Assembly (NCBI GenBank): GCA_035290745.1
Contig: DATDTS010000070.1
Span: 1-39,429, forward strand
Source: Candidatus Bilamarchaeaceae archaeon
GTDB taxonomy: Archaea > Micrarchaeota > Micrarchaeia > Anstonellales > Bilamarchaeaceae
DNA length: 39,429 nucleotides
Direction: 5' to 3'
The notes under the pieces are model-generated. The model made no database searches and was not told the DNA's origin. It worked only from the letters and a program-made list of their open reading frames with translations. Shown here one piece after another: positions 8,802-36,165 of this stretch (position 1 is its first letter; every line of letters begins with the position of its first letter). The position numbers and the translations under genes were made by a program.

Positions 8802-10622
8802 ATGAAAGATTTATTTACAGATAAAACTCAGTGTTTCATATACAATCTAAAACCAATTCCAATTCAACGAATGCTTGATTTTGATTATCTTTGCAGGAGA
8901 ACAACACCAAGTGTAGTAGCTGTTATTGCACCAGGTAAAGCAGGCTCTCTCAAAGCTTTTTTTGGTGCAAAAGAAATATTAATTCCAGTTTATGATAGCA
9001 TAAAAGAAGCTGTAAAACTAAATCCTTCTGTTGATGTTTTTGTAAATTTTGCATCTTTTAGAAGTGCTTATGACTCTTCTTTGGAGGCACTTGAGTCCGA
9101 TTCGATCAAAACTGTTGCAATTATTGCTGAAGGAATTCCAGAAAGACTAACCAAACAGCTTATAGCAGTTGCAAAGAAAAAGAACAAATGTATTATAGGC
9201 CCTGCAAGTGTTGGTGGGTTATCAGCAGGTAAATTTAGAATAGGAAATACTGCTGGAACAATAGAAAATATAATCGCATGCAAGCTTTATCGGCCAGGCT
9301 CAGTTGGTTTTGTATCAAAATCCGGAGGCCTTTCAAATGAAATGTTTAATGTTATCTCAAGAAATGCTGATGGAATTTACGAAGGAATTGCAATTGGTGG
9401 GGATGCATATCCTGGTTCAAGATTAATAGATCACATCTTACGATTTGAGAAAATTCCAGATATAAAAATGATTGTTGCACTTGGAGAAGTTGGAGGTACC
9501 GAGGAATATGAAATTACAGATGCACTGAAAACTAACAAAATTACTAAACCAGTTGTGATGTGGGTTACTGGAACCTGTGCAAAAGTTTTCCCTGGAGAAG
9601 TCCAATTTGGGCATGCTGGTGCAAAAACCGGCGATGAGAAGGGCTCTGCTGATGCAAAGAACTCTGCCCTAAGAGAAGCAGGAGTTATCGTTCCAGATTC
9701 TTATCAGGATTTTGATGTCAAAATAAAACATACTTTTGATTCTTTGAAAAAACAAGGAAAAATAAAAGAAATCAAAGAACCCGGATTTCCAGAAATGCCT
9801 TTGGAATATACAGTTGCATTAAAGCAGGGTAAGATAAGAAAAGCAACAAACTTTATATGTACAACCTCTGATGATCGCGGTGATGAGCCACATTATGCCG
9901 GAATTCCTATGACTAAAATGATTGAGGAGAATTATTCATTAGGAGATGTTATTTCACTTTTATGGTTTAGAAAAAGACTTCCGTCATATGCAAGTAAATT
10001 TATTGAAACTGTTCTATTGATAGTAGCTGATCATGGCCCATGTGTAAGTGGTGCACATAATGCTATTGTCTCATCAAGAGCTGGAAAAGATCTTGTTTCT
10101 TCTCTTTGTTCTGGTTTATTAACCATTGGTCCAAGATTTGGTGGAGCAATTGATGATTCTGCGCGGTTCTTTAAACATGCTTGTGATTCAAAAACCCAAC
10201 CAGACGAATTTGTTGAAGACATGAAGAAAAAAGGGATCAACATTCCTGGAATTGGCCATAGAATCAAATCAGCAAAGAACCCTGACAAAAGAGTTGAGAT
10301 ACTTAAAAATTATGCAAAAAAGCATTTTCCACATACAAAATATTTGGATTATGCTCTTTTAGTTGAAAATGAAACACTAAAGAAAGGTGACAACCTTATA
10401 TTAAATGTCGATGGCACCATTGCAGTTTTATTTTTGGATTTGATTGATGGATGTAAGATTTTTTCAAATGAAGAATTTGACTCTATTGTTGATGTTGGCT
10501 ATTTAAATGGGTTATTTGTTCTGGCTCGTTCAATTGGTATCATGGGCCATGTTTTTGACCAAAAGAGGCTGAAACAACCATTGTACAGGCATCCATGGGA
10601 CGATGTATTATTTTTAGAGTAG
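8802..10622 (+). CDS. aclA: ATP-citrate lyase, large (SCS-alpha-like plus citrate-synthase-like) subunit
   Basis: CoA-binding/SCS-alpha part with phosphohistidine loop VQFGHAGAKTG. C-terminal citrate-synthase-like domain ending LYRHPWDDVLFLE. AAAGGTGAT lies before the ATG. Confidence 0.9.
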   Translation: MKDLFTDKTQCFIYNLKPIPIQRMLDFDYLCRRTTPSVVAVIAPGKAGSLKAFFGAKEILIPVYDSIKEAVKLNPSVDVFVNFASFRSAYDSSLEALESDSIKTVAIIAEGIPERLTKQLIAVAKKKNKCIIGPASVGGLSAGKFRIGNTAGTIENIIACKLYRPGSVGFVSKSGGLSNEMFNVISRNADGIYEGIAIGGDAYPGSRLIDHILRFEKIPDIKMIVALGEVGGTEEYEITDALKTNKITKPVVMWVTGTCAKVFPGEVQFGHAGAKTGDEKGSADAKNSALREAGVIVPDSYQDFDVKIKHTFDSLKKQGKIKEIKEPGFPEMPLEYTVALKQGKIRKATNFICTTSDDRGDEPHYAGIPMTKMIEENYSLGDVISLLWFRKRLPSYASKFIETVLLIVADHGPCVSGAHNAIVSSRAGKDLVSSLCSGLLTIGPRFGGAIDDSARFFKHACDSKTQPDEFVEDMKKKGINIPGIGHRIKSAKNPDKRVEILKNYAKKHFPHTKYLDYALLVENETLKKGDNLILNVDGTIAVLFLDLIDGCKIFSNEEFDSIVDVGYLNGLFVLARSIGIMGHVFDQKRLKQPLYRHPWDDVLFLE

Positions 10623-10775
10623 AGAGTCCTGTGGAGAAGTGAACGTAGTTCACCAAGATCCATGGGACGACGTATTATTTTTGGATTAGCAAAATCCCAT
10701 GGAGAAGTGAACGTAGTTCACCAAGATCCATGGGACGACGTATTATTTTTAGAGTAGAGAGTCCCTTGGAGAAAA
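10591..10775 (+). repeat. tandem repeat, period 67/68 bp, about 2.7 copies, starting inside the last 11 codons of aclA
   Basis: Copies start at 10591, 10658 and 10726 (ATCCATGGGACGAYGTATTATTTTT..). Each full unit carries an extended hairpin (10627-10667 and 10696-10734) with core GTGAAC-GTA-GTTCAC (10639-10653 and 10707-10721), followed by a T5 run. Confidence 0.9.
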
Positions 10776-10778
10776 ATT

Positions 10779-11963
10779 TTATTTCTTTGAATTCCTGATA
10801 GTCATGGCACCAACAAGCACTGTACTGAAAAAAATACTTGTAATAACAATCACAAGAATAAGTTCACTAAACATATTTGTATTTTCTATACCATATGCAT
10901 AAGGTATTTGAGCAAGTACTACTGAAGCTAGATCCTTTGAGCCTATTGCAGCAATGAAGGCAGCATTTTTGAAAAGAGTAGTTTTGAATGTGCAAACAAT
11001 TGTGGAAAGAGCTCTAATAATAAATAGCAGCACTGTAATAACTATCCCTATTAATATTATATTAATATTGCTAATACCGGCTATCATTCCAAGATAAACA
11101 TAGAAAAATGTCCTTATAAAAAACGAGAATTCGTTATGTGTTTTTTTAAGTGTTTCATCATAAAAATACTTGTTCTGCTTGATTTTAAAAAACTCAAATA
11201 TTTGAAGACCGTTACTAAGAATAAGACCAAAAACAAGAACAGCTATGGCACCATTCCCATTGAATTTATCTGCAATTGAGTAAACAACAAAAAGCGTTGC
11301 AAGGGCAATCATATAACTAAACGGTTTTGCCCTTGTTTTCTTCAGAACTTTCATCCAAAAAACTGCAGCAATTAACCCAAACATAGTACCAACAAGAAAT
11401 TGGCTCAAGATTGTTCCACCAACTTTAAACAAATCATTGTCTCCAGTTGTGTAACCTATAACGAGAGAGATTGTTAGCACTATACATAAAATATCATTAG
11501 CTACTGCTTCAATTGAGATAAAGTTATAAACTCCTTCTCTAATCTTCATTCCTTCTATCATAGCAGCAGATGTTCCAGCTGCAATAGCACCGAAAATAGC
11601 ACCAACCATCAGGTCTACTCCAAAAATTAGGTTAAACAAAATTCCACAAACAAAAATTGATAAAACAACATTCAAGACACCAAAAATTAATGCCCTTGGA
11701 CTACTTTTAAGAATCTTGAAGAGGTTCATATTAAGCCCACCTTCAAAAAGGATAAACATAAGAGCTATTGGCGCAAAGATGGGTGTCATTTCAATTAACT
11801 GTTGCGGGTCAGAATAACCTGTAATAGGTCCTATCATCAAACCAAGCAAAACAAGTATAAGAACAGACGGTATCTTCGTTTTTCTGTATAGTTCCTCACT
11901 TAAAAAACCTATAAATATTATAGTACCTATAAGTGCAAATGTGTTTGTGACTGTGTCTAGCAT
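10779..11963 (-). CDS. cation/proton antiporter (CPA1/CPA2-like Na+/H+ exchanger)
   Basis: About 11-12 hydrophobic helices. The N-terminus FLSEELYRKTKIPSVLILVLLGLMIGP is typical of Na+(K+)/H+ exchanger family proteins. Confidence 0.75.
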   Translation of the reverse strand: MLDTVTNTFALIGTIIFIGFLSEELYRKTKIPSVLILVLLGLMIGPITGYSDPQQLIEMTPIFAPIALMFILFEGGLNMNLFKILKSSPRALIFGVLNVVLSIFVCGILFNLIFGVDLMVGAIFGAIAAGTSAAMIEGMKIREGVYNFISIEAVANDILCIVLTISLVIGYTTGDNDLFKVGGTILSQFLVGTMFGLIAAVFWMKVLKKTRAKPFSYMIALATLFVVYSIADKFNGNGAIAVLVFGLILSNGLQIFEFFKIKQNKYFYDETLKKTHNEFSFFIRTFFYVYLGMIAGISNINIILIGIVITVLLFIIRALSTIVCTFKTTLFKNAAFIAAIGSKDLASVVLAQIPYAYGIENTNMFSELILVIVITSIFFSTVLVGAMTIRNSKK

Positions 11964-16110: not shown

Positions 16111-17251
16111 TTTTTTCCAGAGTTTTTCTAACAACCTCTTCAATACCTATTCTTTCTTCAATCATTTTTATTTGTTCTAATCTAGCTTTGGTAGCTGGGT
16201 GTTTTACTGCAACTAATGAGCAACAATCCTTGTATTCTTCAATTGAAGCGTCGAATGTCCCTACTTTTTGTGCCAGTTCCATAATTTCTTGTTTGTCATA
16301 AGTTGCAAGTGGCCGGTATACTGGTACACTGAAAGCCTCATCAACACAATATAAATTTTCTAAAGTTTGTGATGCAACTTGTGCAATACTATCACCCGTA
16401 ACAACCCCTAGCGCCCCTTCTTCTTTACATAACTTATTTGCAACATTTGCTATAAATCTTCTAAACAAAACAAGTTCAAGTTTAGGTGGGACTTCGAATG
16501 TTTTTTCTTGAAAATCCTGATAGGATACAATATATAAACTGATTTTGTAAGGATGAAATTCTTTCAATATTTTTATTAATTTAACTATTTTTGAATTCAA
16601 AACATCATCATTTCTTGGATAATTATGTATATGTAAAAAATTTACCTCGCACCCTCTTTTCATCATAAGCCAACTTGAAACTGGAGAGTCTATCCCTCCG
16701 GAAAATAAAGATAAAATCTTACCGCTTGATTTTACCGGCATTCCACCAAGGCCTTTTATTTTTTCAAATGAAACTATTATTTTATCATTTAATATCTCTA
16801 CAAATATCTTTTTTTCAGGTTTTTTTAAATCTATTTCGATTCCGTTTGCTTCAAGCTCCTTACCTATTTTTTTATTTACATCAAGCGAGGTTGCTTGAAA
16901 CTTTTTGTCCGATCTCTTAGTATCAATTTTAACTTTTTTGCCATTCAAATGTTCTTTTGCATAATCCAAAATAAGCTTTGTCACCTTTTCTAAATCTTTT
17001 TCAATTACATAAGCAAAAGAGAACCAGCTAATACCAAAAACCTTATTTAGCTTTTTTTCTATCTCTTCCTTATTGCTTTTTTCATTTAAGTAAATAATTA
17101 TTCTTGTTTCTTTTCTTTCTATTTTCTCGTATTCTATTCCATCTAAAGCCGTTTCTATATTATACTTTAACCTATTCTCAAAACTAGCCTTATTCTTTCC
17201 TTTTAATGACAATTCTCCATAATGTACGTTAAATATTTCCATAATAATCAA
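16091..17251 (-). CDS. thiI: tRNA 4-thiouridine synthase ThiI (THUMP plus PP-loop ATPase)
   Basis: PP-loop SGGIDSPV with an N-terminal THUMP-like region. ATGs at 17251 and 17242 are both possible. The 3' end overlaps cbf5 convergently by 20 nt. Confidence 0.85.
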   Translation of the reverse strand: MIIMEIFNVHYGELSLKGKNKASFENRLKYNIETALDGIEYEKIERKETRIIIYLNEKSNKEEIEKKLNKVFGISWFSFAYVIEKDLEKVTKLILDYAKEHLNGKKVKIDTKRSDKKFQATSLDVNKKIGKELEANGIEIDLKKPEKKIFVEILNDKIIVSFEKIKGLGGMPVKSSGKILSLFSGGIDSPVSSWLMMKRGCEVNFLHIHNYPRNDDVLNSKIVKLIKILKEFHPYKISLYIVSYQDFQEKTFEVPPKLELVLFRRFIANVANKLCKEEGALGVVTGDSIAQVASQTLENLYCVDEAFSVPVYRPLATYDKQEIMELAQKVGTFDASIEEYKDCCSLVAVKHPATKARLEQIKMIEERIGIEEVVRKTLEKIKVVEI

Positions 17252-17257
17252 TTAATA

Positions 17258-17365
17258 AATTAAAAACGCTGAGGGCCAGATCGGAACCGCAGGGGGACAC
17301 CCCCTTCAGTTTGACGCTCTTCCTGATTTCCCCGACTTTTGAATTAAAAACGCTGAGGGCCAGAT
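17258..17365 (-). repeat. direct duplication (24/24 nt, 84-nt spacing) of the tRNA 3' exon plus oligo-T terminator
   Basis: AATTAAAAACGCTGAGGGCCAGAT occurs at 17258-17281 and again at 17342-17365. On the minus strand each copy reads AUCUGGC-CCUCAGC-G-UUUUUAAUU. Confidence 0.9.
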
Positions 17366-17644
17366 TTTCAACATTGCACCTCTTGGTTGCAAGGGGTGCG
17401 GGGCCCGCTGGGGTCCTGCTTTGAACTGGCGATCCTTTCGGACACGCTTCCCGAACCGCTGGGAAACTACGTTTCCCCTCGGTTTGAGGTTCCCGATGGA
17501 ATTCCATTCCATGGGCCCATTGAACACGGTTCAATTGGGCTTCCTGATCCCCTTCCTTTTGGGATTCAGAAAAAGTTCCAGGCCTACGCTTCTAATTGAA
17601 GATTCAATTAAAATGTGCGCACTACCAGGTTATGCGACCTCAGC
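17351..17644 (-). tRNA. interrupted class II tRNA gene, best reading tRNA-Ser(GGA), 294-nt locus with at least two long insertions
   Basis: Minus strand. The acceptor stem GCUGAGG (17644-17638) pairs 7/7 with CCUCAGC (17358-17352). Discriminator G at 17351 is followed by U5. U8 is present. The D arm is canonical: GCAU-AACCUGGUA-GUGC (17635-17619). The T stem GCCAG (17430-17426) is followed by UUCAAA, then a 55-nt insertion, then U-CUGGC (17364-17359). The only canonical anticodon arm is AUGGA-AUGGAAU-UCCAU (17512-17496), with anticodon at 17505-17503. The variable-arm region is unresolved. Confidence 0.5.
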
Positions 17645-17655
17645 GAATGAAATGA

Positions 17656-17694
17656 GCTGAGGGAATTGAACAAGCAGTTCAATAAGACCTCAGC
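17656..17694 (-). other. 39-nt leader minihelix copying the acceptor strands of the downstream tRNA
   Basis: The minus strand reads GCUGAGG-UCUU-AUUGAAC-UGCUU-GUUCAAU-UC-CCUCAGC. An 11-nt spacer UCAUUUCAUUC (17655-17645) follows, then tRNA position 1 at 17644. Confidence 0.6.
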
Positions 17695-17891
17695 ATGAAC
17701 TTTCATTAGTCTGCACCTATGCTAAAGTTCAATCAAACTTCCAAGGGCAAGACTAATAAAAAACTCCCTAAGCAAAGAGAGTTTAATCAAAAGTGAGGAA
17801 AAACGTTTTTAATATGCTTGTTTTTCTTCTACATCCAAAAGTTACATAATCTATTTAATCCTTATCAATGAAATACCTTAAGTTGAATCTT

Positions 17892-19130
17892 ATGTCTGAT
17901 TTAAAAAAAACTGATGAAGCAATTTATAAACTGGTTCAGGATGAGTTACATTACGAACAAAAAACACTAAGGCTAATCCCATCTGAGAACTATGCATCAA
18001 AAGCAGTCTTAGAAGCTACAGGTTCTGTTTTTGCTAATAAATACGCAGAAGGTTACCCTCATAAAAGATACTATGCAGGACAAAAATATATTGATATGGT
18101 TGAAGATCTGGCAATTGAAAGAGCAAAAAAATTATTTGGGGTGAAATTTGCAAATGTTCAGCTAAATTCCGGTTCTCCTGGAAATATGGCAGTGTATTAT
18201 TCACTTATGAATCATGGAGATACATTCATGGGTTTGGAATTATCTCATGGTGGCCATATAACCCATGGTTTGAAAATTAATTTCTCCGGAAGTGAATATA
18301 ATGCGGTTTCTTACCAGCTTAACAAAAAAACCGAGAAATTAGATTTTGATGAAATCCGGAAACTTGCTGAGCAACATAAACCAAAATTAATTGTTTGTGG
18401 TTATACTGCTTACCCATATCAAGTTGATTTTAAACAATTTAGAGAGATTTGTGACGAGATTGGAGCTTATTTACTTGCAGATATTTCACATATTGCAGGT
18501 TTGATTGTTGGTGGGGTCCATCCATCACCAGTTGGAGTTGCAGATGTAATTATGACTACTACTCATAAAACATTAAGAGGCCCTAGAGGAGCCGTAATAC
18601 TAACAAATAATGAAGAAATTGCTACTAAAATAGATAAAGCAGTTTTTCCTGGGTTACAGGGTGGTCCACATATCCATTCAATTGCTGCAAAGGCGGTTTG
18701 TTTTCATGAAGCAATGCAGCCAGAATTCAAGAATTACACTCATCAAATTGTAAAAAATGCAAAAGCATTGGCTCATCACCTTTCTTCTTTAGGTTTGAGA
18801 TTAGTTGGAGGGGGAACCGAAACTCACCTAATTTTGGTTGATGTAATGTCCTCAAAAAATATTACAGGGAAAAAAGCTCATGAAGCATTAGAAGAAGCTG
18901 GAATTATTGTTAATAAAAATACCATTCCATACGACACTCAAAAACCGTTTATTGGTTCAGGAATAAGAATCGGAACTCCTTCTCTTACCACGCGTGGAAT
19001 GAAGGAAACTGAGATGAAACTTGTTGCAGAACTAATGGTAAGAGTTCTTGATAATGTTGATGATGCTAAATTAAAGGAAGAGGTAAGAAAAGAAGTTGAA
19101 GAGTTATGTTCAAAGTTTCCAATTTACTAG
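17892..19130 (+). CDS. glyA: serine hydroxymethyltransferase
   Basis: Motifs LIPSENYAS and TTTHKTLRGPRG (PLP lysine). The ATG at 17892 (MSDLKKTDEAI..) fits the family N-terminus. The track start at 17868 is possible. Confidence 0.9.
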   Translation: MSDLKKTDEAIYKLVQDELHYEQKTLRLIPSENYASKAVLEATGSVFANKYAEGYPHKRYYAGQKYIDMVEDLAIERAKKLFGVKFANVQLNSGSPGNMAVYYSLMNHGDTFMGLELSHGGHITHGLKINFSGSEYNAVSYQLNKKTEKLDFDEIRKLAEQHKPKLIVCGYTAYPYQVDFKQFREICDEIGAYLLADISHIAGLIVGGVHPSPVGVADVIMTTTHKTLRGPRGAVILTNNEEIATKIDKAVFPGLQGGPHIHSIAAKAVCFHEAMQPEFKNYTHQIVKNAKALAHHLSSLGLRLVGGGTETHLILVDVMSSKNITGKKAHEALEEAGIIVNKNTIPYDTQKPFIGSGIRIGTPSLTTRGMKETEMKLVAELMVRVLDNVDDAKLKEEVRKEVEELCSKFPIY

Positions 19131-24265: not shown

Positions 24266-24376
24266 CTTTAATCACCTATAAAAATAGATGAGTAATAATT
24301 GAAGCAAAAGATATTTATAACTATTTATACCTTTGTTTTGTTTTAGGTCAATTTAGGTACTTAAAAATAGAAAAAT

Positions 24377-24488
24377 CGCCCCCACTGGGATTTGAACCCA
24401 GCTTCCAAGATCCGCAATCTTGTGTTCTTTCTGTTTTTCAAGCCTTTAAAATCATAAACTTGGAATATCCAGGCTATACTATGGGGGC
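24377..24488 (-). tRNA. tRNA-Arg(GCG) with a roughly 41-nt insertion at a non-canonical site (between positions 26/27 and 30/31)
   Basis: Minus strand. Acceptor GCCCCCA pairs with UGGGGGC, followed by discriminator G. D arm GUAU-AGCCUGG-AUAU. Intact anticodon arm CAAGA-UUGCGGA-UCUUG with U33 and G37. T arm CUGGG-UUCAAAU-CCCAG. The 41 nt between the D arm and the anticodon arm must be removed to give a 71-nt tRNA. Confidence 0.7.
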
Positions 24489-24623
24489 ATTGCATTACCA
24501 TAAAATTAGAATATTTAATAAATTAAATCTTTACTACCCAAATAACACAAGAAAGCCAACTAGTGACACCACAAGATCTCTCTTGGTTTGACGTTACTAA
24601 AATTTCTTTCCTCTGAGGAAAGG

Positions 24624-26708: not shown

Positions 26709-27284
26709 ATGGATGTAACCATTGAGAAAGAGCATGAAAAGAAATTTGAGTTTGTTTTAGAAGGAGTGTCTCATGCTTTTGCAAATGCTATTAGAAGATA
26801 TGCTATGAATCGCGTTCCTATTATGGCTATTGATAAGGTTCTTTTCTATGATAACACATCTTCAATCTTTGATGAGTATATTGCTCATAGGATTGGACTA
26901 ATCCCTCTAAAAACACCAAGTAAATTAAGTGAAAACGCTGAAGTAACTCTATCATTGGATCAAACTGGTCCTAAAATGGTATATTCAGGTGATTTTAAGA
27001 GTTCTGATTCGCAAATTGTTCCAGCTATTGATGCCATTCCAGTATTTACCTTATTAGACGGACAAAGATTAGTACTAGAAGGAAAAGCAGTTGTTGGACT
27101 TGGTAATCGACATGCAAAATTCCAATCTGGTATTGTTGCTTATAAGTTTGATAAAGATAAATTTCATTTTAAGGTAGAAGGAATTTATCATATGCCAGTT
27201 AGAGAAATAATCATTAGAGCATGTAATGAGTTCGAAAATGATTTAGATAACCTTTCTAAACTTCTAAAGAAAAAGGCAAAATAA
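26709..27284 (+). CDS. rpoD: DNA-directed RNA polymerase subunit D (Rpo3), short form
   Basis: Motifs FANAIRRYAMNRVP and DEYIAHRIGLIPL. Conserved position after rps11. Confidence 0.85.
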   Translation: MDVTIEKEHEKKFEFVLEGVSHAFANAIRRYAMNRVPIMAIDKVLFYDNTSSIFDEYIAHRIGLIPLKTPSKLSENAEVTLSLDQTGPKMVYSGDFKSSDSQIVPAIDAIPVFTLLDGQRLVLEGKAVVGLGNRHAKFQSGIVAYKFDKDKFHFKVEGIYHMPVREIIIRACNEFENDLDNLSKLLKKKAK

Positions 27285-27296
27285 TTGTGTGATTAC

Positions 27297-27304
27297 TTTA
27301 TATA
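27297..27304 (+). promoter_or_regulatory. TATA-box-like TTTATATA upstream of the tRNA-Leu leader module
   Basis: TTTATATA lies 27-34 nt upstream of the first G of the minihelix at 27331. That spacing is the usual archaeal TATA-to-start distance. Confidence 0.4.
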
Positions 27305-27330
27305 TTCTTTTTATTGTGTATTATCTTTAT

Positions 27331-27369
27331 GCAGGGATCTTATTGAACATTTTGTTCAATTCTCCCAGC
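27331..27369 (+). other. 39-nt leader minihelix copying the acceptor strands of the downstream tRNA
   Basis: Reads GCAGGGA-TCTT-ATTGAAC-ATTTT-GTTCAAT-TC-TCCCAGC. An 11-nt spacer AGTTCATTCAT (27370-27380) follows, then tRNA position 1 at 27381. Confidence 0.6.
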
Positions 27370-27380
27370 AGTTCATTCAT

Positions 27381-27709
27381 GCAGGGATGACGGAGCGGTC
27401 AAAAGCTTTTTGGCTACTTATAAACATTTGCCAAAAACCTTGGAAAAAGGCATATTGCAATTCTTTAGTGTGGCTGTCCAAACGTGCTAGGTTGAGGTTC
27501 TTTTGGATTAGCAAGTCCGTTTTTGGACTCGCTTTTCCTAAAAAGCGAGAGCCTAGTGGCTTAGTGCTTGCGAGAAACTTTTGACTTCGGTCATTCATAC
27601 GCCAAAAGTTTCATCAAAAGGCGTAATGTTCGCATAAGTTCGAACCTTCGCCAACTTTGTTGGTGAATTTTTAACGAAGCACAGCGAAGTTAAAACCTCT
27701 CTCCCTGCA
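27381..27709 (+). tRNA. interrupted class II tRNA gene, best reading tRNA-Leu(GAG), 329-nt locus with three long insertions
   Basis: The acceptor stem GCAGGGA pairs 7/7 with TCCCTGC (27702-27708), with discriminator A at 27709. The 5' end GCAGGGATGACGGAGCGGTCAAA has a Leu/Ser-type D loop. D stem ACG closes with CGT only after skipping 79 nt (27404-27482). The anticodon arm is CTAGG-TTGAGG(T) at 27487-27498, closing with CCTAG at 27552-27556 after about 53 nt. The anticodon GAG is at 27494-27496. The long variable arm is TGGCTTAGTGCTTGC. T stem GAGA(27572-27575)+G(27689) pairs with CTCTC after about 113 nt. Predicted mature length is 84 nt. The T loop TTAAAAC is atypical (A at position 56), so the 3' part is the weakest. 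Confidence 0.55.
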
Positions 27710-29197: not shown

Positions 29198-29213
29198 CTA
29201 TTTACCTAGTCCA

Positions 29214-29351
29214 TCAGTCACACGCGCATTTGTTTACTTGATATTCTTCCCTGTCTTCAAACTCCTGTTTTTTACCAACATTCCAATTTTGGACTGGTCT
29301 AAAGTATCCAACTATTCTACTATATACCTCTGTTTCTTTTCCACATTTCAT
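29214..29351 (-). CDS. stand-alone glycyl-radical C-terminal segment of NrdD (45 aa, not in the ORF track)
   Basis: My translation is MKCGKETEVYSRIVGYFRPVQNWNVGKKQEFEDREEYQVNKCACD. It contains the class III RNR glycyl-radical motif (SRIVGY) and the conserved RPVQNWNxGK. AAAGGTGATT lies 3 nt upstream of the ATG. Confidence 0.75.
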   Translation of the reverse strand: MKCGKETEVYSRIVGYFRPVQNWNVGKKQEFEDREEYQVNKCACD

Positions 29352-29375
29352 TTAATCACCTTTATTTCAATTGGA

Positions 29376-29407
29376 GGTGAGCAGTGAACGTAGTTCACTC
29401 AATCACC
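29376..29407. repeat. extended hairpin with core GTGAAC-GTA-GTTCAC spanning the stop codon of the large nrdD ORF
   Basis: GGTGA-GC-AGTGAAC-GTA-GTTCACT-CAA-TCACC. The same 15-nt core as at 10639-10653 and 10707-10721. The core here is at 29384-29398. Confidence 0.85.
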
Positions 29408-31446
29408 TTTTCGATTATTTCTTCTGATTGGTGAGGACATGTAAAATGTTCCCCTTTAATATAACCATGTTCCGGACATACACTAAACGTCGGGGTTATG
29501 GTGAAGTAAGGTAGTTTGAAGTTAAATGCAATTTTTTTGACTAATTTCATTGTTGTTTTCCAGTCATCAATTCTCTCGCCTAAAAACGAATGAAGTACGG
29601 TTCCTCCGGTATACAAAGTTTGGAATTCGTCTTGATGTTCCAAGGCTTCAAATACATCTTCTGTAAAATTAACTGGAAGATGAGTTGAATTAGTATAATA
29701 TGGTCTTTCTCTAGTGCCAGCAGTTATTATATCCGGATACAATTCCCTATCTTTTTTTGCAAATCTATACGTTGCAGATTCACATGGCGTAGCTTCAAGG
29801 TTGTAAAGATTTTGTGTTTCTCCCTGGAACACCTTAATCTCACGTCTTATAAACTCCATCACCTCAACTGCAAAAATCTTTCCCTTTTCTGTTTCTATTC
29901 CTTCTCCCATAAAATTTAGTAAAGCTTCATGCATTCCATTAATTCCAATTGTTGAGAAATGGTTTTGATAAGTTCCAAGAAACTTCTTTGTGAATGGCAT
30001 TAATCCAGCTTTAACATTTGCTTCAACCACCTTTCTTTTTATTTCAAGTGATTCCTTTGCAATTTTTAATATATACCCAAGCCTTTGAAAGAATTCTTCT
30101 TTAGTCTTAGCAATATACCCTATTCTCGGAAGATTTATTGTAACAACTCCTATGCTTCCAGTTTGATCAGCTGCCCCAAAAAGTCCGCCCATCTTATTTT
30201 TTAACTCTTTCAGATCAAGTTGAAGTCTGCAGCACATACTTCTAATATCAGATGGTTTTAGAGTACTGTTTATAAAATTCTGGAAATATGGTATCCCATA
30301 TTTTGCCGTCATTTCAAATAACAATCTTGCATTTTCTGATTCCCAGTTGAACTCATTTGTTATATTATAGGTTGGGATTGGATAAAAGAAAGCCCTTCCT
30401 TTTGCATCGCCTTCAATCATTACCTCAATAAATGCCTTGTTTATCATGTCCATTTCTTCTTGGCATTCACTATACGTAAATGTTTGTAGTTCTCCACCAA
30501 CAATTGCTGGTTCATCTTTCATATCTTCAGGCACTATCCAGTCAAAAGTAAAATTTGTAAATGGTGCCTGGCATCCCCATCTGCTTGGCACATTCAATGA
30601 AAAAACCAACATTTGAATATTTTGCTTTACTGTTTTGTATTCCAAGCCATCTTTTTTTATGAATGGTGCTAATAAGGTATCAACTGAGGAAAATGCTTGT
30701 GCTCCTGCATGTTCCATCTGCATTGTTCCTAAAAAATTCACCATTTGAACAACTGCAACCTCTAAATGTTTAGGTGGTAATGAACTGATCTTTTTTGGCA
30801 CACCACCAAACCCTGTTAATAATAAGTTTTTCAGTGACCATCCACAACAGTACCCAGTTACTCCGTACCCTAAATCATGAATATGCATATCACCATTTCT
30901 ATGTGCTTGGGCTACATTATCAGAGTAAATCTCATTAAGCGTATAATTTGCAATAATCTTTCCAGCAATATGAGACATCAAACCTGAAAAGGAATAATCA
31001 GAATTGCTGTTTTCATACACTCTCCAGTCAGTTTTTTTTAGGTATTCATCCATAGTATTCCTTACTTCTACAAATCCCCCTTGTATATTTCTAATCTTCT
31101 CATGCTGTTTTCTGTATAAAATATATCCCTTTGCAGTCTGGGCATATCCCTCTTTTATAAGTACTTTTTCTACTATATCTTGAATTTGTTCTACTGAACA
31201 TAATGCATTTTTACCATAAGCATTTTCCATTTCTTCAATTACTTTATTTGTGAGTTCGTCAGCTATCTTTTCCCCGAACTCTTGTGTTGTTTTAGCAGCA
31301 CTATAAATAGCATTTTTTATTCTTGTTTTATCAAATTTTACAATCCTCCCATCTCTCTTCTGTATAAACTGTGGTGTCTCAGATTTTGTGTTCATATTTT
31401 TCATCTCCATCTCTTTTGTGCATTTTATATTTTTAAAGGTTTCCAA
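29395..31446 (-). CDS. nrdD: anaerobic ribonucleoside-triphosphate reductase NrdD, large fragment lacking the glycyl-radical end
   Basis: ATP-cone (IQKRDGRIVKFDKTRIKNAIYSAA) and class III RNR core. The ORF ends ..FSVCPEHGYIKGEHFTCPHQSEEIIEKVIE, in the middle of the zinc-ribbon region. The true start is probably one of the ATGs at 31410, 31404 or 31395 rather than the TTG at 31446. Confidence 0.9.
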   Translation of the reverse strand: METFKNIKCTKEMEMKNMNTKSETPQFIQKRDGRIVKFDKTRIKNAIYSAAKTTQEFGEKIADELTNKVIEEMENAYGKNALCSVEQIQDIVEKVLIKEGYAQTAKGYILYRKQHEKIRNIQGGFVEVRNTMDEYLKKTDWRVYENSNSDYSFSGLMSHIAGKIIANYTLNEIYSDNVAQAHRNGDMHIHDLGYGVTGYCCGWSLKNLLLTGFGGVPKKISSLPPKHLEVAVVQMVNFLGTMQMEHAGAQAFSSVDTLLAPFIKKDGLEYKTVKQNIQMLVFSLNVPSRWGCQAPFTNFTFDWIVPEDMKDEPAIVGGELQTFTYSECQEEMDMINKAFIEVMIEGDAKGRAFFYPIPTYNITNEFNWESENARLLFEMTAKYGIPYFQNFINSTLKPSDIRSMCCRLQLDLKELKNKMGGLFGAADQTGSIGVVTINLPRIGYIAKTKEEFFQRLGYILKIAKESLEIKRKVVEANVKAGLMPFTKKFLGTYQNHFSTIGINGMHEALLNFMGEGIETEKGKIFAVEVMEFIRREIKVFQGETQNLYNLEATPCESATYRFAKKDRELYPDIITAGTRERPYYTNSTHLPVNFTEDVFEALEHQDEFQTLYTGGTVLHSFLGERIDDWKTTMKLVKKIAFNFKLPYFTITPTFSVCPEHGYIKGEHFTCPHQSEEIIEKVIE

Positions 31447-34512: not shown

Positions 34513-36165
34513 CTAACCTGCTTTTACTTTTTTTAATCTTCTAGCTTCTAATTGATACTGCTTTCCTTGTTTTGCCTTTAGATTAACTGCTTTTGCTATC
34601 ATTCCTGCTACTAAACGGTATCTTTGAACTACTTCATCTCTTTTTTCAGGAAATCTCAAAACATTTATCCTATCTCGCAGAAATCCTGATTCAATCAGTC
34701 GCCTCTCTTGTCTAGTTGTTATATCATTAAAGTCAAGTCCTACTAGACTTGCCAATGCTTTTGGATCATGCATAGCATAAGCTGGTTCCAGGTTAATTGG
34801 ATTTTCAATTAGTCTTCTTACATAAGCAGTTTGTAACTCATCTAATATCGGATGTTTTGCTCCGCTATTAATCAAGTGTTCTTCTCTTGTTAATTTTGGT
34901 ATTAATATTGAATGTCTATTATCCTCCTCAGCTCTTGCTCTCATGCACTCTACATATTCATCTAGTTCATGTACCTTAGATATAGATCTAATATGAATTA
35001 TTTGTGCACCAGTTCCTGTGAAAAAAACAGCTTCTGCTTTGTATAATTCTTCCGGAGGTAAAGATTTATATCTAACCTTTATCCCTCTTTCTTCAAGTGT
35101 TTGAATCATCCTTAGTCTTGTCGTTCCCATTAATGGACCATCACTAAGAGGAGGGGTATAGCAAACATACTTATCTCCCTCTTTAACCATTACAAATAAA
35201 TTTTCCGCGGATCCTTCTACAGCTAAACCACTCCTATTAAGTGCAATGATCTCTCCATACCCTAAAATTACTCCTACATTTATGTTAAGCAGCGAATTGA
35301 TATAATGACCATCTAACTTTCTTCCTGTAAAAAATCCATTACCAATTCTTTCAAATGGACCAATAACTACATCTAATCCAGTTTGGTAATGTTCATCCTT
35401 CAAATATTTACCCCAAGGTTGTGTGCTTACCCCCCAAGCAAACGGTTTTGCAACAAACCTTTCTTCAACGTTGGCTACTGTCGGAACCCCAAGACCTCCT
35501 TCTGAAGATACCCAAAAATGAGGCCGTATATATCCTGATCTAGTCATCAATAATCCTTTTTTGAAATAATCTCTTGAGACAAGTCCGTTTAGAAAAACAA
35601 GTGCTTTTATTGCAGCATCGATCTCAAATGCAGTATACTCCCTAATTTGTCCATCTAAAACAGTTTTTAGTCTCCATGGAAATTCAATTTTTTTTCTTCC
35701 CTCAGGAGTCTCAATATAAAACCAGAGTGTTGGTTCACGTCCTTCTTTTAATGCTTCTGTTATATCTCTAAATATCTCAACATCACTTCTGTGTGGACAT
35801 TCCACGTTTCCTGCGTTTGCATTTGTTAATAGTTGAATTGCAATATCTGGTTCTACCCCAGTAAAACTGAATAGAAATCTTGCAATATTCCAAGAAAGAT
35901 TTGGAAATACTGATCCAAATGGTGAATAATAAACTCTAACTCCTTCAAACCCATCTGCAGAGTAATGAAGTGGGTATGCACTTGTGCTAACTACAGATAG
36001 TTCTGGACGTACAAATCCGTTTAAAAGGCTTGAAAAAACAGCTATAGCTTCTCGATCTGTTGGAAACCTATCAACAGTAATTCCCTCAACTTGTATAATT
36101 CTAGTTTCAGGTAGCTTTTTCTTTTGACCAGTACGCAACAACAAATCTGCATCAAGTCTTTCCAT
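34513..36165 (-). CDS. fold-type IV PLP enzyme (branched-chain/D-amino-acid aminotransferase-like), unusually long at 550 aa
   Basis: BCAT-like blocks: LHYSADGFEGVRVYY, GYIRPHFWVSSEGGLGV, GRKLDGHYINSLL (candidate PLP Lys), EGSAENLFVMVKEGDKYVCYTPPLSDGPLMGTTR, AEAVFFTGTGAQI. There is an insertion of about 100 aa and a C-terminal extension of about 130 aa. Confidence 0.65.
   Translation of the reverse strand: MERLDADLLLRTGQKKKLPETRIIQVEGITVDRFPTDREAIAVFSSLLNGFVRPELSVVSTSAYPLHYSADGFEGVRVYYSPFGSVFPNLSWNIARFLFSFTGVEPDIAIQLLTNANAGNVECPHRSDVEIFRDITEALKEGREPTLWFYIETPEGRKKIEFPWRLKTVLDGQIREYTAFEIDAAIKALVFLNGLVSRDYFKKGLLMTRSGYIRPHFWVSSEGGLGVPTVANVEERFVAKPFAWGVSTQPWGKYLKDEHYQTGLDVVIGPFERIGNGFFTGRKLDGHYINSLLNINVGVILGYGEIIALNRSGLAVEGSAENLFVMVKEGDKYVCYTPPLSDGPLMGTTRLRMIQTLEERGIKVRYKSLPPEELYKAEAVFFTGTGAQIIHIRSISKVHELDEYVECMRARAEEDNRHSILIPKLTREEHLINSGAKHPILDELQTAYVRRLIENPINLEPAYAMHDPKALASLVGLDFNDITTRQERRLIESGFLRDRINVLRFPEKRDEVVQRYRLVAGMIAKAVNLKAKQGKQYQLEARRLKKVKAG

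Follow-up and report, generated by a model that had tools for sequence, protein, structure and literature searches.

In the closest documented case, from Caldiarchaeum, a mobile element that integrates at a tRNA-Thr gene can leave behind a second copy of a 5′ tRNA fragment before the intact gene (PMC3293823). This case is also polymorphic within a natural population and accompanied by intron gain at the same locus (PMC3293823). The tRNA-Ser locus analysed here has a similar layout, with a copy of the tRNA 5′ end upstream of the intact gene and inserted DNA between the two. The inserts themselves are different, however. The Caldiarchaeum insert is a 1.8-kb, recombinase-encoding element, whereas the one at tRNA-Ser is 41 nt long, gene-free, and contains an inverted copy of its target.

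Closest in kind are small mobile palindromes, among them MITEs, Rickettsia palindromic elements, yeast mitochondrial GC clusters, and the double-hairpin elements of Allomyces. The sequences described below resemble MITEs and other small palindromes in being tens of bases long, hairpin-forming, dispersed, accompanied by short direct repeats, strain-variable, and tolerated in genes and RNA genes. The ends of MITEs and small palindromes are fixed, and the target is not copied in inverted orientation. In the present sequences, by contrast, the outer arms are specific to each site, and terminal inverted repeats are at best weak (~7/10). Templated insertions, as in quasi-palindrome correction and direct-inverted-direct triplications, arise through fold-back or template-switch DNA synthesis. 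They share with our locus the direct, inverted, and direct copies of one short sequence around a palindrome. Such insertions are usually unique, whereas a conserved core of ~23 nt is found here at several sites.

The ultrasmall archaeon ARMAN-2 is presumably a relative of the source organism. It has tRNA introns at positions 53/54 and 59/60, and its three-unit splicing endonuclease cuts relaxed motifs (PMC3239211). The same genes and type of organism are concerned here, and introns at 53/54 and 59/60 are present in these tRNAs. As in bulge-helix-bulge introns, a hairpin stands beside sequence that is complementary to the upstream exon; unlike these introns, the Ser leader lacks the two 3-nt bulges placed 4 bp apart and lies outside the mature tRNA. 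Like an ordinary leader removed by RNase P, it would lie between the transcription start and tRNA position 1, upstream of a complete tRNA body. Ordinary leaders in this DNA are normally short and unstructured (as for the tRNA at 24489), whereas the Ser leader is 50 nt long, strongly folded, and repeats the acceptor sequence.

The tRNA-Ser(GGA) gene and its leader hairpin

The window, i.e., the whole 39,429-nt stretch that was analysed, has a G+C content of 34%. The genes around the locus have archaeal housekeeping functions (ThiI, SHMT, Dus, Cbf5, RNA polymerase subunit D, ribosomal proteins, and NrdD). For ThiI, the best named relatives belong to Micrarchaeota, and the closest non-self match is 58% identical. 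A ThiI scan of genome contigs returned one irrelevant bacterium.

Direct reading of the minus strand at 17694-17656 yielded the minihelix GCUGAGG-UCUU-AUUGAAC-UGCUU-GUUCAAU-UC-CCUCAGC. The outer 5′ arm GCTGAGG (17694-17688) is followed by the linker TCTT (17687-17684), the first strand of the inner stem, ATTGAAC (17683-17677), and the loop TGCTT (17676-17672). The second strand of the inner stem, GTTCAAT (17671-17665), leads through the linker TC (17664-17663) to the outer 3′ arm CCTCAGC (17662-17656) and an 11-nt spacer, TCATTTCATTC (17655-17645). On the same strand, GCTGAGG is found again at 17644-17638 and CCTCAGC at 17358-17352, next to the discriminator G at 17351. The first-pass annotation had reported this minihelix, the complementarity of its 7-nt ends and their identity to the acceptor strands of an interrupted Ser-like tRNA, as well as a further hairpin directly upstream. 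The minihelix sequence was borne out base for base, the two ends pair and match the acceptor strands as described, and the upstream hairpin, TGAACTTT (17731-17724) with AAAGTTCA (17703-17696), is present on the minus strand.

The downstream gene, likewise real, occupies 17351..17644 (minus strand, 294 nt) and has three introns. ARAGORN called the spliced 81-nt product tRNA-Ser(GGA), with discriminator G and T-loop UUCAAAU. The exons are 17644-17615, 17583-17576, 17448-17420, and 17364-17351. Intron 1 (31 nt, 17614-17584) interrupts position 29/30, intron 2 (127 nt, 17575-17449) position 37/38, and intron 3 (55 nt, 17419-17365) position 59/60. An acceptor strand and D-arm of textbook form take up the first 26 nt, and the T-arm is split at 59/60 (GCCAG-UUCAAA ... 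U-CUGGC-CCUCAGC-G). After splicing, the D-loop, T-loop, anticodon loop, and long variable arm are those of a class II cloverleaf. All three introns form a bulge-helix-bulge motif of canonical geometry, with 4/4 pairs in the central helix and 3-nt bulges on both sides (ACA/AGG, AAC/GAA, and AAG/AAU). Neither default ARAGORN nor Rfam detected the gene in the unspliced genomic DNA, which was expected because of its three introns of 213 nt in total.

For comparison, we used a sister strain (L036, contig CAZOSX010000008.1 of GCA_964582725.1) that is 95.8% identical over 20 kb. Its spliced tRNA-Ser is identical (81/81), and the introns differ in number and sequence. Intron 1 is missing from the sister strain exactly at the predicted junction, which confirms the borders of this intron; the two remaining introns are unrelated in sequence to those of the window. 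On these comparisons of sequence, we regard the tRNA-Ser assignment of 17644-17351 as confirmed. Similar multi-intron tRNAs have been described before.

Other identities were considered for the 294-nt RNA. SRP RNA, RNase P RNA, an IscB/TnpB guide, an IS110 bridge RNA, and a retron RNA were rejected because the adjoining ORF is ThiI, Rfam gave no family, and the tRNA model fits. A permuted or split tRNA gene was also discarded, as the leader has no T-stem and the complete 3′ half is found downstream of it (17448-17351). The Rfam covariance-model scan of the whole window produced no match at gathering score. Within 17100-17950 and 27000-27700, matches were at chance level (E of 0.5 or more), so that no Rfam family claims the Ser region, in keeping with the linkage to the tRNA made in the first-pass annotation.

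Two of the tRNA-Ser introns contain hairpins similar to that of the leader. The intron at 29/30 is itself a hairpin with the core AUUGAA-UCU-UCAAU, and the inverted-repeat scan located a hairpin of the same family, CCCAAUUGAAC-CGU-GUUCAAUGGG, in intron 2 (17516..17538, minus strand). The 3′ end of the gene is also duplicated. The repeat scan revealed a perfect 24-nt direct repeat, AUCUGGCCCUCAGCGUUUUUAAUU, at 17365-17342 and 17281-17258 (region 17258..17365, minus strand). Its first copy completes the tRNA-Ser and the T-run, the two copies enclose a 60-nt GC-rich piece resembling intron 2, and the duplication is conserved in the sister strain.

Below, W1 denotes the upstream copy of tRNA positions 1-9 (GCUGAGGUC, 17686..17694, minus strand), whose bases 17694-17688 serve as the 5′ arm of the outer stem, and W2 the duplicated copy of these positions that heads the intact tRNA body. 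The fold computation gave a free energy of -18.1 kcal/mol for the leader hairpin. In the thermodynamic ensemble, W1 paired with the inverted copy with a probability of 0.83, and W2 with the 3′ acceptor strand with the same probability of 0.83. The alternative pairing between the inverted copy and W2 accounted for 17% of the ensemble.

Strain comparison and copies at other sites

The Ser site of the sister strain lacks the module. Pairwise alignment to the window showed a single clean gap of 50 nt, which consists of a 41-nt insert and a 9-nt direct repeat, GCTGAGGTC, corresponding to tRNA positions 1-9. The empty site reads ...CTTAT-GCTGAGGTC-GCAT, and W1 bounds the indel. The 41-nt insert (17645..17685, minus strand), without counterpart in the sister strain, is composed of UU, AUUGAAC-UGCUU-GUUCAAU, UC, the inverted target copy CCUCAGC (17662-17656), and the 11-nt spacer UCAUUUCAUUC. 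The 15 nt preceding W1 are homologous to the sequence 5′ of the sister-strain tRNA-Ser; W1 and this flank would therefore be the old 5′ end. W1 is likely to represent the ancestral tRNA 5′ end together with the transcription start region. As regards polarity, the sister strain could also have lost the module through recombination between the 9-nt repeats.

A second indel specific to the window, of 48 nt, lies upstream of the module (17710..17757, minus strand; from the alignment and the sequence). It contributes one arm of the upstream hairpin, UGAACUUU (17731-17724), the partner of which is the host sequence AAAGUUCA (17703-17696). It also contributes a TATA-like element, TTTAGCATA, ~24-32 nt 5′ of W1. 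In both the Ser and the Leu modules, TATA-like elements stand 24-34 nt upstream of W1. The sister strain has a 163-nt insertion of its own, TTTTATTGTAC...GTACAATAAAA, which starts as an inverted copy of the flank and has a 14-nt direct repeat. Other strain-specific insertions likewise start with an inverted copy of their own flank, and several different insertions are found immediately 5′ of the Ser and Leu tRNAs in both strains.

The partner module precedes a tRNA-Leu on the plus strand. This cassette, GCAGGGA-UCUU-AUUGAAC-AUUUU-GUUCAAU-UC-UCCCAGC with the spacer AGUUCAUUCAU, spans 27331..27380, the minihelix proper being 27331-27369. It is flanked by a direct repeat, ATGCAGGGAT (27329-27338 and 27379-27388), and a TATA box, TTTATATA, is located 5′ of it (27297-27304). 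The downstream gene at 27381..27707 (plus strand) was identified by ARAGORN on the spliced model as tRNA-Leu(GAG) with four introns (D-loop, 37/38, 53/54, and 59/60), so the proposed tRNA-Leu partner is genuine. The first-pass annotation had described the Ser module as the same as the Leu module except for the loop bases and the tRNA-specific flanks. All 20 stem and linker bases are indeed identical, loop and spacer lengths are equal, and 3/5 loop bases differ, but the 11-nt spacer sequences are also unlike (TCATTTCATTC for Ser and AGTTCATTCAT for Leu). The Leu module itself is real, although its outer stem is imperfect, with one A.A mismatch.

In the sister strain, the Leu cassette is kept with one change in the spacer. 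The exon blocks of the tRNA-Leu are identical there (4/4), and the gene has three introns, the one at 59/60 being missing. Insertions specific to the sister strain, upstream of and within the tRNA-Leu, bear hairpins of the same family. The tRNA at 24489-24376, with one intron, is the only ordinary tRNA in the window. It begins ~23 nt after its TATA box, and no module was found there.

The same arrangement occurs at sites without a tRNA. The direct/inverted word scan located a copy at 29354..29409 (minus strand), reading AAGGUGAUU / GAGUGAAC-UAC-GUUCACUGC UCACCUC CAAUUGAAAUA / AAGGUGAUU, in the junction of a split nrdD gene. For the small C-terminal nrdD ORF, the duplicated 9-mer AAGGUGAUU is the Shine-Dalgarno region. 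Three outgroups (L049, L050, and L051; 74-76% protein identity) also have a split nrdD, with a Shine-Dalgarno sequence and an ATGA overlap, and the hairpin is absent. When the 47-nt unit was removed from the window, giving ...GAAAAGGUGAUUAAAUGAAAUGUGG, the Shine-Dalgarno sequence and the ATGA stop/start were restored, collinear with the three outgroups. This collinearity identifies the nrdD copy as a derived insertion that duplicated 9 nt. It is shared by the window and the sister strain.

Two other readings of the nrdD junction were tried. An 85-nt intron restoring CPKCG aligned well to Thermotoga NrdD, and was dropped because its borders give no bulge-helix-bulge motif. Among the nrdD relatives, an unsplit one has a long loop at the split point, and closer ones are split there too. 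Translational bypass, as in T4 gene 60 or the mitochondrial 'byp' elements, was also rejected, since the 47-nt period leads to AAA-UGA and leaves the frame unrestored. The downstream nrdD ORF has its own Shine-Dalgarno sequence and AUG, as in the outgroups.

A tandem pair (10627..10735) lies between convergent genes, ATP-citrate-lyase-like and Na+/H+ exchanger, 3′ of the lyase-like ORF. Found by the word scan on the minus strand, the first copy (10735-10695) reads UCCCAUGGA-UCUU-GGUGAAC-UAC-GUUCACU-UC-UCCAUGGGA, and the second (10667-10627) has the 3′ arm UCCACAGGA. The terminal codons of the lyase-like ORF are present in triplicate. One unit is present in the strain contig L033, and two in the window and in L031.

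All sites have the order target, hairpin, inverted target, spacer, and target. The target-complementary arms are 6-9 nt long and match at 7/7 positions for Ser, 6/7 for Leu, 6/7 for nrdD (6/6 for its strict six-base arm UCACCU), and 9/9 and 7/9 for the tandem pair. The contrast between the Ser arm (7/7, strain-variable) and the Leu arm (6/7, shared) is of the kind that relic decay would give. Direct repeats are 9 nt at Ser, 10 nt at Leu, 9 nt at nrdD, and 10 nt or more for the 3′ copies at the lyase site, so the duplicated stretch is uneven in length (9, 10, 9, and up to about 25-45 nt). As with MITEs, there are direct repeats of the target and pairs of filled and empty sites (Ser against the sister strain, nrdD against the three outgroups, and the single unit in L033). 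By eye, the left terminus ATTGAAC and the reverse complement of the right one (GTTCATT or TTTCATT) agree at ~7/10 positions in Ser and Leu; the GUGAAC subfamily has no counterpart of these termini.

Hairpins of the form TGAAC-N2-8-GTTCA were observed six times against 0.26 expected, and 0/100 shuffles reached six. ATTGAAC-N5-GTTCAAT had two exact matches, against 0.43 expected even with two mismatches allowed, so the inner palindrome is well beyond chance. The scan for a word, its inverted copy, and the word again returned about 100 matches compared with 26-65 in shuffles, and alone does not separate signal from noise. A further locus (L039) has a strain-specific structured element with a hairpin of the same family. 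A 14-nt piece is common, in opposite orientation, to the lyase-site spacer and a tRNA-Leu intron, which points to patchwork templating as a possible origin. About 10 kb of extra flank contained no further copies. In public metagenomes, the exact inner-stem pattern retrieved the same locus and chance matches only, and the pattern scan of viral contigs gave three chance matches, one of them a tRNA T-arm. The cassette family is thus documented in one lineage only. On reasoning from the layout, we also set aside an integron attC-like site, a CRISPR repeat remnant, and a K-turn, none of which has this arrangement.

Weighing the explanations

With these results in hand, we consider the 'leader minihelix' to be, with a probability of roughly 0.6, one copy of a dispersed hairpin insertion cassette of ~40 nt with target duplication, and not a device built for the tRNA. 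The match to the acceptor strands would then arise because the insertion site was duplicated and copied in inverted orientation, and it does not imply a tRNA-specific design.

A functional cis-acting leader is the alternative that survives best. It would be a selected mimic of the acceptor stem with an anti-acceptor element that aids the folding or processing of a multi-intron pre-tRNA. It might mask the 5′ acceptor complement until the 3′ strand is made ~290 nt later, or act as a four-segment switch (1:2 and 3:4 versus 2:3). Both carrier tRNAs are class II and heavily interrupted, the stem and linker bases of the two modules are identical while the loops are unlike, and the Leu module differs by a single change between two strains. 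The switch is physically possible, given the 17% share of the alternative pairing. The first-pass annotation had raised such leader-to-tRNA pairing as a point to check by folding; it is outweighed by the pairing of W1 with the inverted copy (0.83). Its broader idea of a dedicated tRNA leader module lost support for several reasons. The sister strain has an identical tRNA-Ser without the module, the tRNA at 24489-24376 does without one too, and the architecture also occurs at sites lacking a tRNA, one of which (nrdD) is a derived insertion. Moreover, the outer-stem mismatches of the Leu module (6/7) and of the second tandem copy (7/9) are uncompensated. We therefore judge a functional leader to be unlikely.

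The leader could also be the relic of a tandem or permuted tRNA, i.e., a collapsed upstream copy lying head to tail with the intact gene. Such a relic would retain positions 1-9, the T-loop-like GUUCAAUUC, the 3′ acceptor strand, and the trailer. GUUCAAUUC does resemble a T-loop (G53-C61), the same string being found in the real tRNA T-arm of a viral contig, and the Leu arm is followed by A, which is also the Leu discriminator. CCCUCAGC-UCAUUUCAUUC agrees with the tRNA 3′ end and trailer, CCCUCAGC-GUUUUUAAUUC, at 15/19 positions, but this likeness is weak once the arm is excluded (7/11 in U-rich sequence). The T-stem is missing, and the layout is repeated in the non-tRNA copies. The Ser module and the Leu module are also far closer to each other than to their own tRNAs, and the Leu T-loop is UUCGAAC. 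These points render a tRNA relic improbable.

We hold a DNA recombination site to be a shade less probable again. In this case, the 7-bp inverted arms would flank a 3-5-bp centre to make up a recombinase core, and the repeats would be att-like scars left by integration and excision at tRNA genes. The palindrome and spacer layout does resemble recombinase cores, and several differing insertions lie just 5′ of the Ser and Leu tRNAs in both strains. Furthermore, tRNA genes are classic integration targets (PMC4390854). The flanking repeats, however, are unlike at every site, whereas att cores are common to element and target, and the copies are too short for arm-type sites. No integrase is nearby within the window. 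Finally, a fourth intron, by which the splicing endonuclease would remove 50 nt and W1 would be the true exon 1, is very improbable: a promoter-like element does stand before W1 and not W2, and the ARMAN-2 endonuclease accepts relaxed motifs (PMC3239211), but all ten equivalent 50-nt registers form at most 2/4 central-helix pairs without proper bulges, compared with 4/4 in the real introns.

A possible course of insertion and its meaning

If the insertion cassette is the correct explanation, a 41-nt segment would have been inserted after tRNA-Ser position 9, flanked by the 9-nt target repeat GCTGAGGTC. The segment would comprise the palindromic core UCUU-AUUGAAC-N5-GUUCAAU-UC, the 7-nt inverted target copy, and the 11-nt spacer. 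W1, the old 5′ end, would remain beside the promoter region, and W2 would head the intact tRNA body. Transcription from the TATA-like elements would start at or near W1, so that the cassette is probably transcribed as a 50-nt 5′ leader and removed by RNase P. By pairing with W1 in a stable minihelix, the inverted copy would keep this anti-acceptor sequence off the real acceptor strand. RNase P would cleave at 17645/17644, and the splicing endonuclease would excise the three introns. The latter is not expected to cut the leader because no register forms a bulge-helix-bulge motif.

The cassette would be tolerated at tRNA-Ser because the duplication leaves the gene whole. Likewise, nrdD would keep a whole ribosome-binding site and the lyase-like ORF a whole 3′ end. 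Our guess for the inverted target copy is that it may originate in the insertion or repair step itself, when DNA synthesis around the palindrome folds back or switches template. We know of no transposition chemistry that produces a target-complementary arm. A further point against a mobile cassette is that the 39-kb window encodes neither a transposase nor a recombinase.

Some features are poorly matched by a simple fold-back or template-switch version, namely the unpaired conserved linkers UCUU and UC, and the identical Ser and Leu cores despite their unlike loops. The variable duplication length fits neither a simple fold-back model nor one fixed staggered cut. The identity of stem and linkers between the Ser and Leu modules (20/20) points to a constraint on the stem, which might serve either mobility or function.

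A wider proposal can be put forward only tentatively. Micrarchaeota-like archaea may carry undescribed, ultra-small (~40 nt) mobile hairpin cassettes, each of which would duplicate 9-10 nt (sometimes more) and write an inverted copy of 6-9 nt. Each copy would then fold with its own flank. The cassettes would land on gene boundaries (tRNA 5′ ends, ribosome-binding sites, and stop-codon regions) and leave the gene undestroyed. Our literature search found no description of a target-copying hairpin cassette. The cassettes may be related to the fast-turnover tRNA introns that bear the same hairpin in the same genomes.

If the cassette explanation is true, a leader that mimics an acceptor stem would be a by-product of small DNA insertion in reduced archaeal genomes, and a warning against inferring function from such mimicry. 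In two genomes ~4% apart, gains or losses of tRNA introns, of the leader cassette, and of insertions at a ribosome-binding site would become datable events. The hairpin common to introns, leaders, and intergenic insertions would also offer a testable lead on the origin and mobility of the non-canonical introns of archaea.

Split genes and strain differences

The anaerobic ribonucleotide reductase gene (window 29198-31446, minus strand) is split in two ORFs: the break in the zinc-ribbon motif comes behind its CP and leaves a large ORF and a 45-46-aa ORF with the glycyl-radical motif (RIVGY). The split is common to relatives at 74-76% identity, which makes this probably an old two-piece enzyme. 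The class IV aminotransferase-like gene (34513-36165, minus strand) encodes 550 aa in the window. In three strain contigs of almost equal length (L037, L038, and L040), two ORFs of 225 and 295 aa are called instead, which suggests a frameshift or nonsense polymorphism.

Upstream of the PAS-domain gene, one strain contig (L039, positions 1-328) carries a different 328-nt sequence, with the breakpoint at window 31571/31572. A structured element within it shows a layout homologous to that of intron 2 of tRNA-Ser(GGA), and contains two TGAAC..GTTCA hairpins, the core of the proposed cassette family of hairpin insertions.

The lyase site and the other tRNA genes

The ATP-citrate-lyase-like ORF (8802..10622) ends in 10 codons and a stop that occur three times (PWDDVLFLE/D*; 10590-10780), as part of a 68-nt tandem unit. 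The spacer of one of the cassettes at this site (10681-10694) and a tRNA-Leu intron (27501-27514) share 14 identical nt in opposite orientation; the match overlaps an 11-nt indel relative to the sister strain L036.

The tRNA-Leu(GAG) gene (27381-27707, plus strand) has four introns (D-loop, 37/38, 53/54, and 59/60). Both T-loop introns flank a 6-nt micro-exon, UUCGAA, and the 59/60 intron is absent from L036. Upstream of the L036 gene (10596-10877), insertions of 163 and 95 nt separate the TATA box from the Leu leader cassette, shifting the original TATA box by ~260 nt. At its beginning, the 163-nt insertion repeats its own flank in inverted orientation; it also has a 14-nt direct repeat. With introns allowed, ARAGORN found only one tRNA in the window (24376-24489, minus strand), called as tRNA-Ile(UAU) with a 42-nt intron. 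Alternatively, this gene could be read as tRNA-Arg(GCG) with the intron elsewhere.

Flanks and introns of tRNA-Ser

The 3' end of tRNA-Ser and its terminator form a 24-nt perfect direct repeat (17258-17365, minus strand). Between both copies lies a 60-nt GC-rich piece resembling intron 2. This arrangement was kept in L036, although its intron 2 is unrelated. Upstream of the tRNA-Ser leader, a terminator-like hairpin (AAACUCUCUUUGCUUAGGGAGUUU) is followed by a U-run (17761-17784, minus strand). There is no gene upstream of this hairpin on the minus strand, and the homologous L036 stretch is TATA-like instead.

The spliced tRNA-Ser is identical in the window (17351-17644) and in L036 (about 815-1030), whose genomes are ~4% apart. 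The intron number differs, however (three in the window, two in L036), and the intron sequences of both cannot be aligned. At this divergence, the comparison of the two sequences indicates a very fast turnover of the tRNA-Ser introns.
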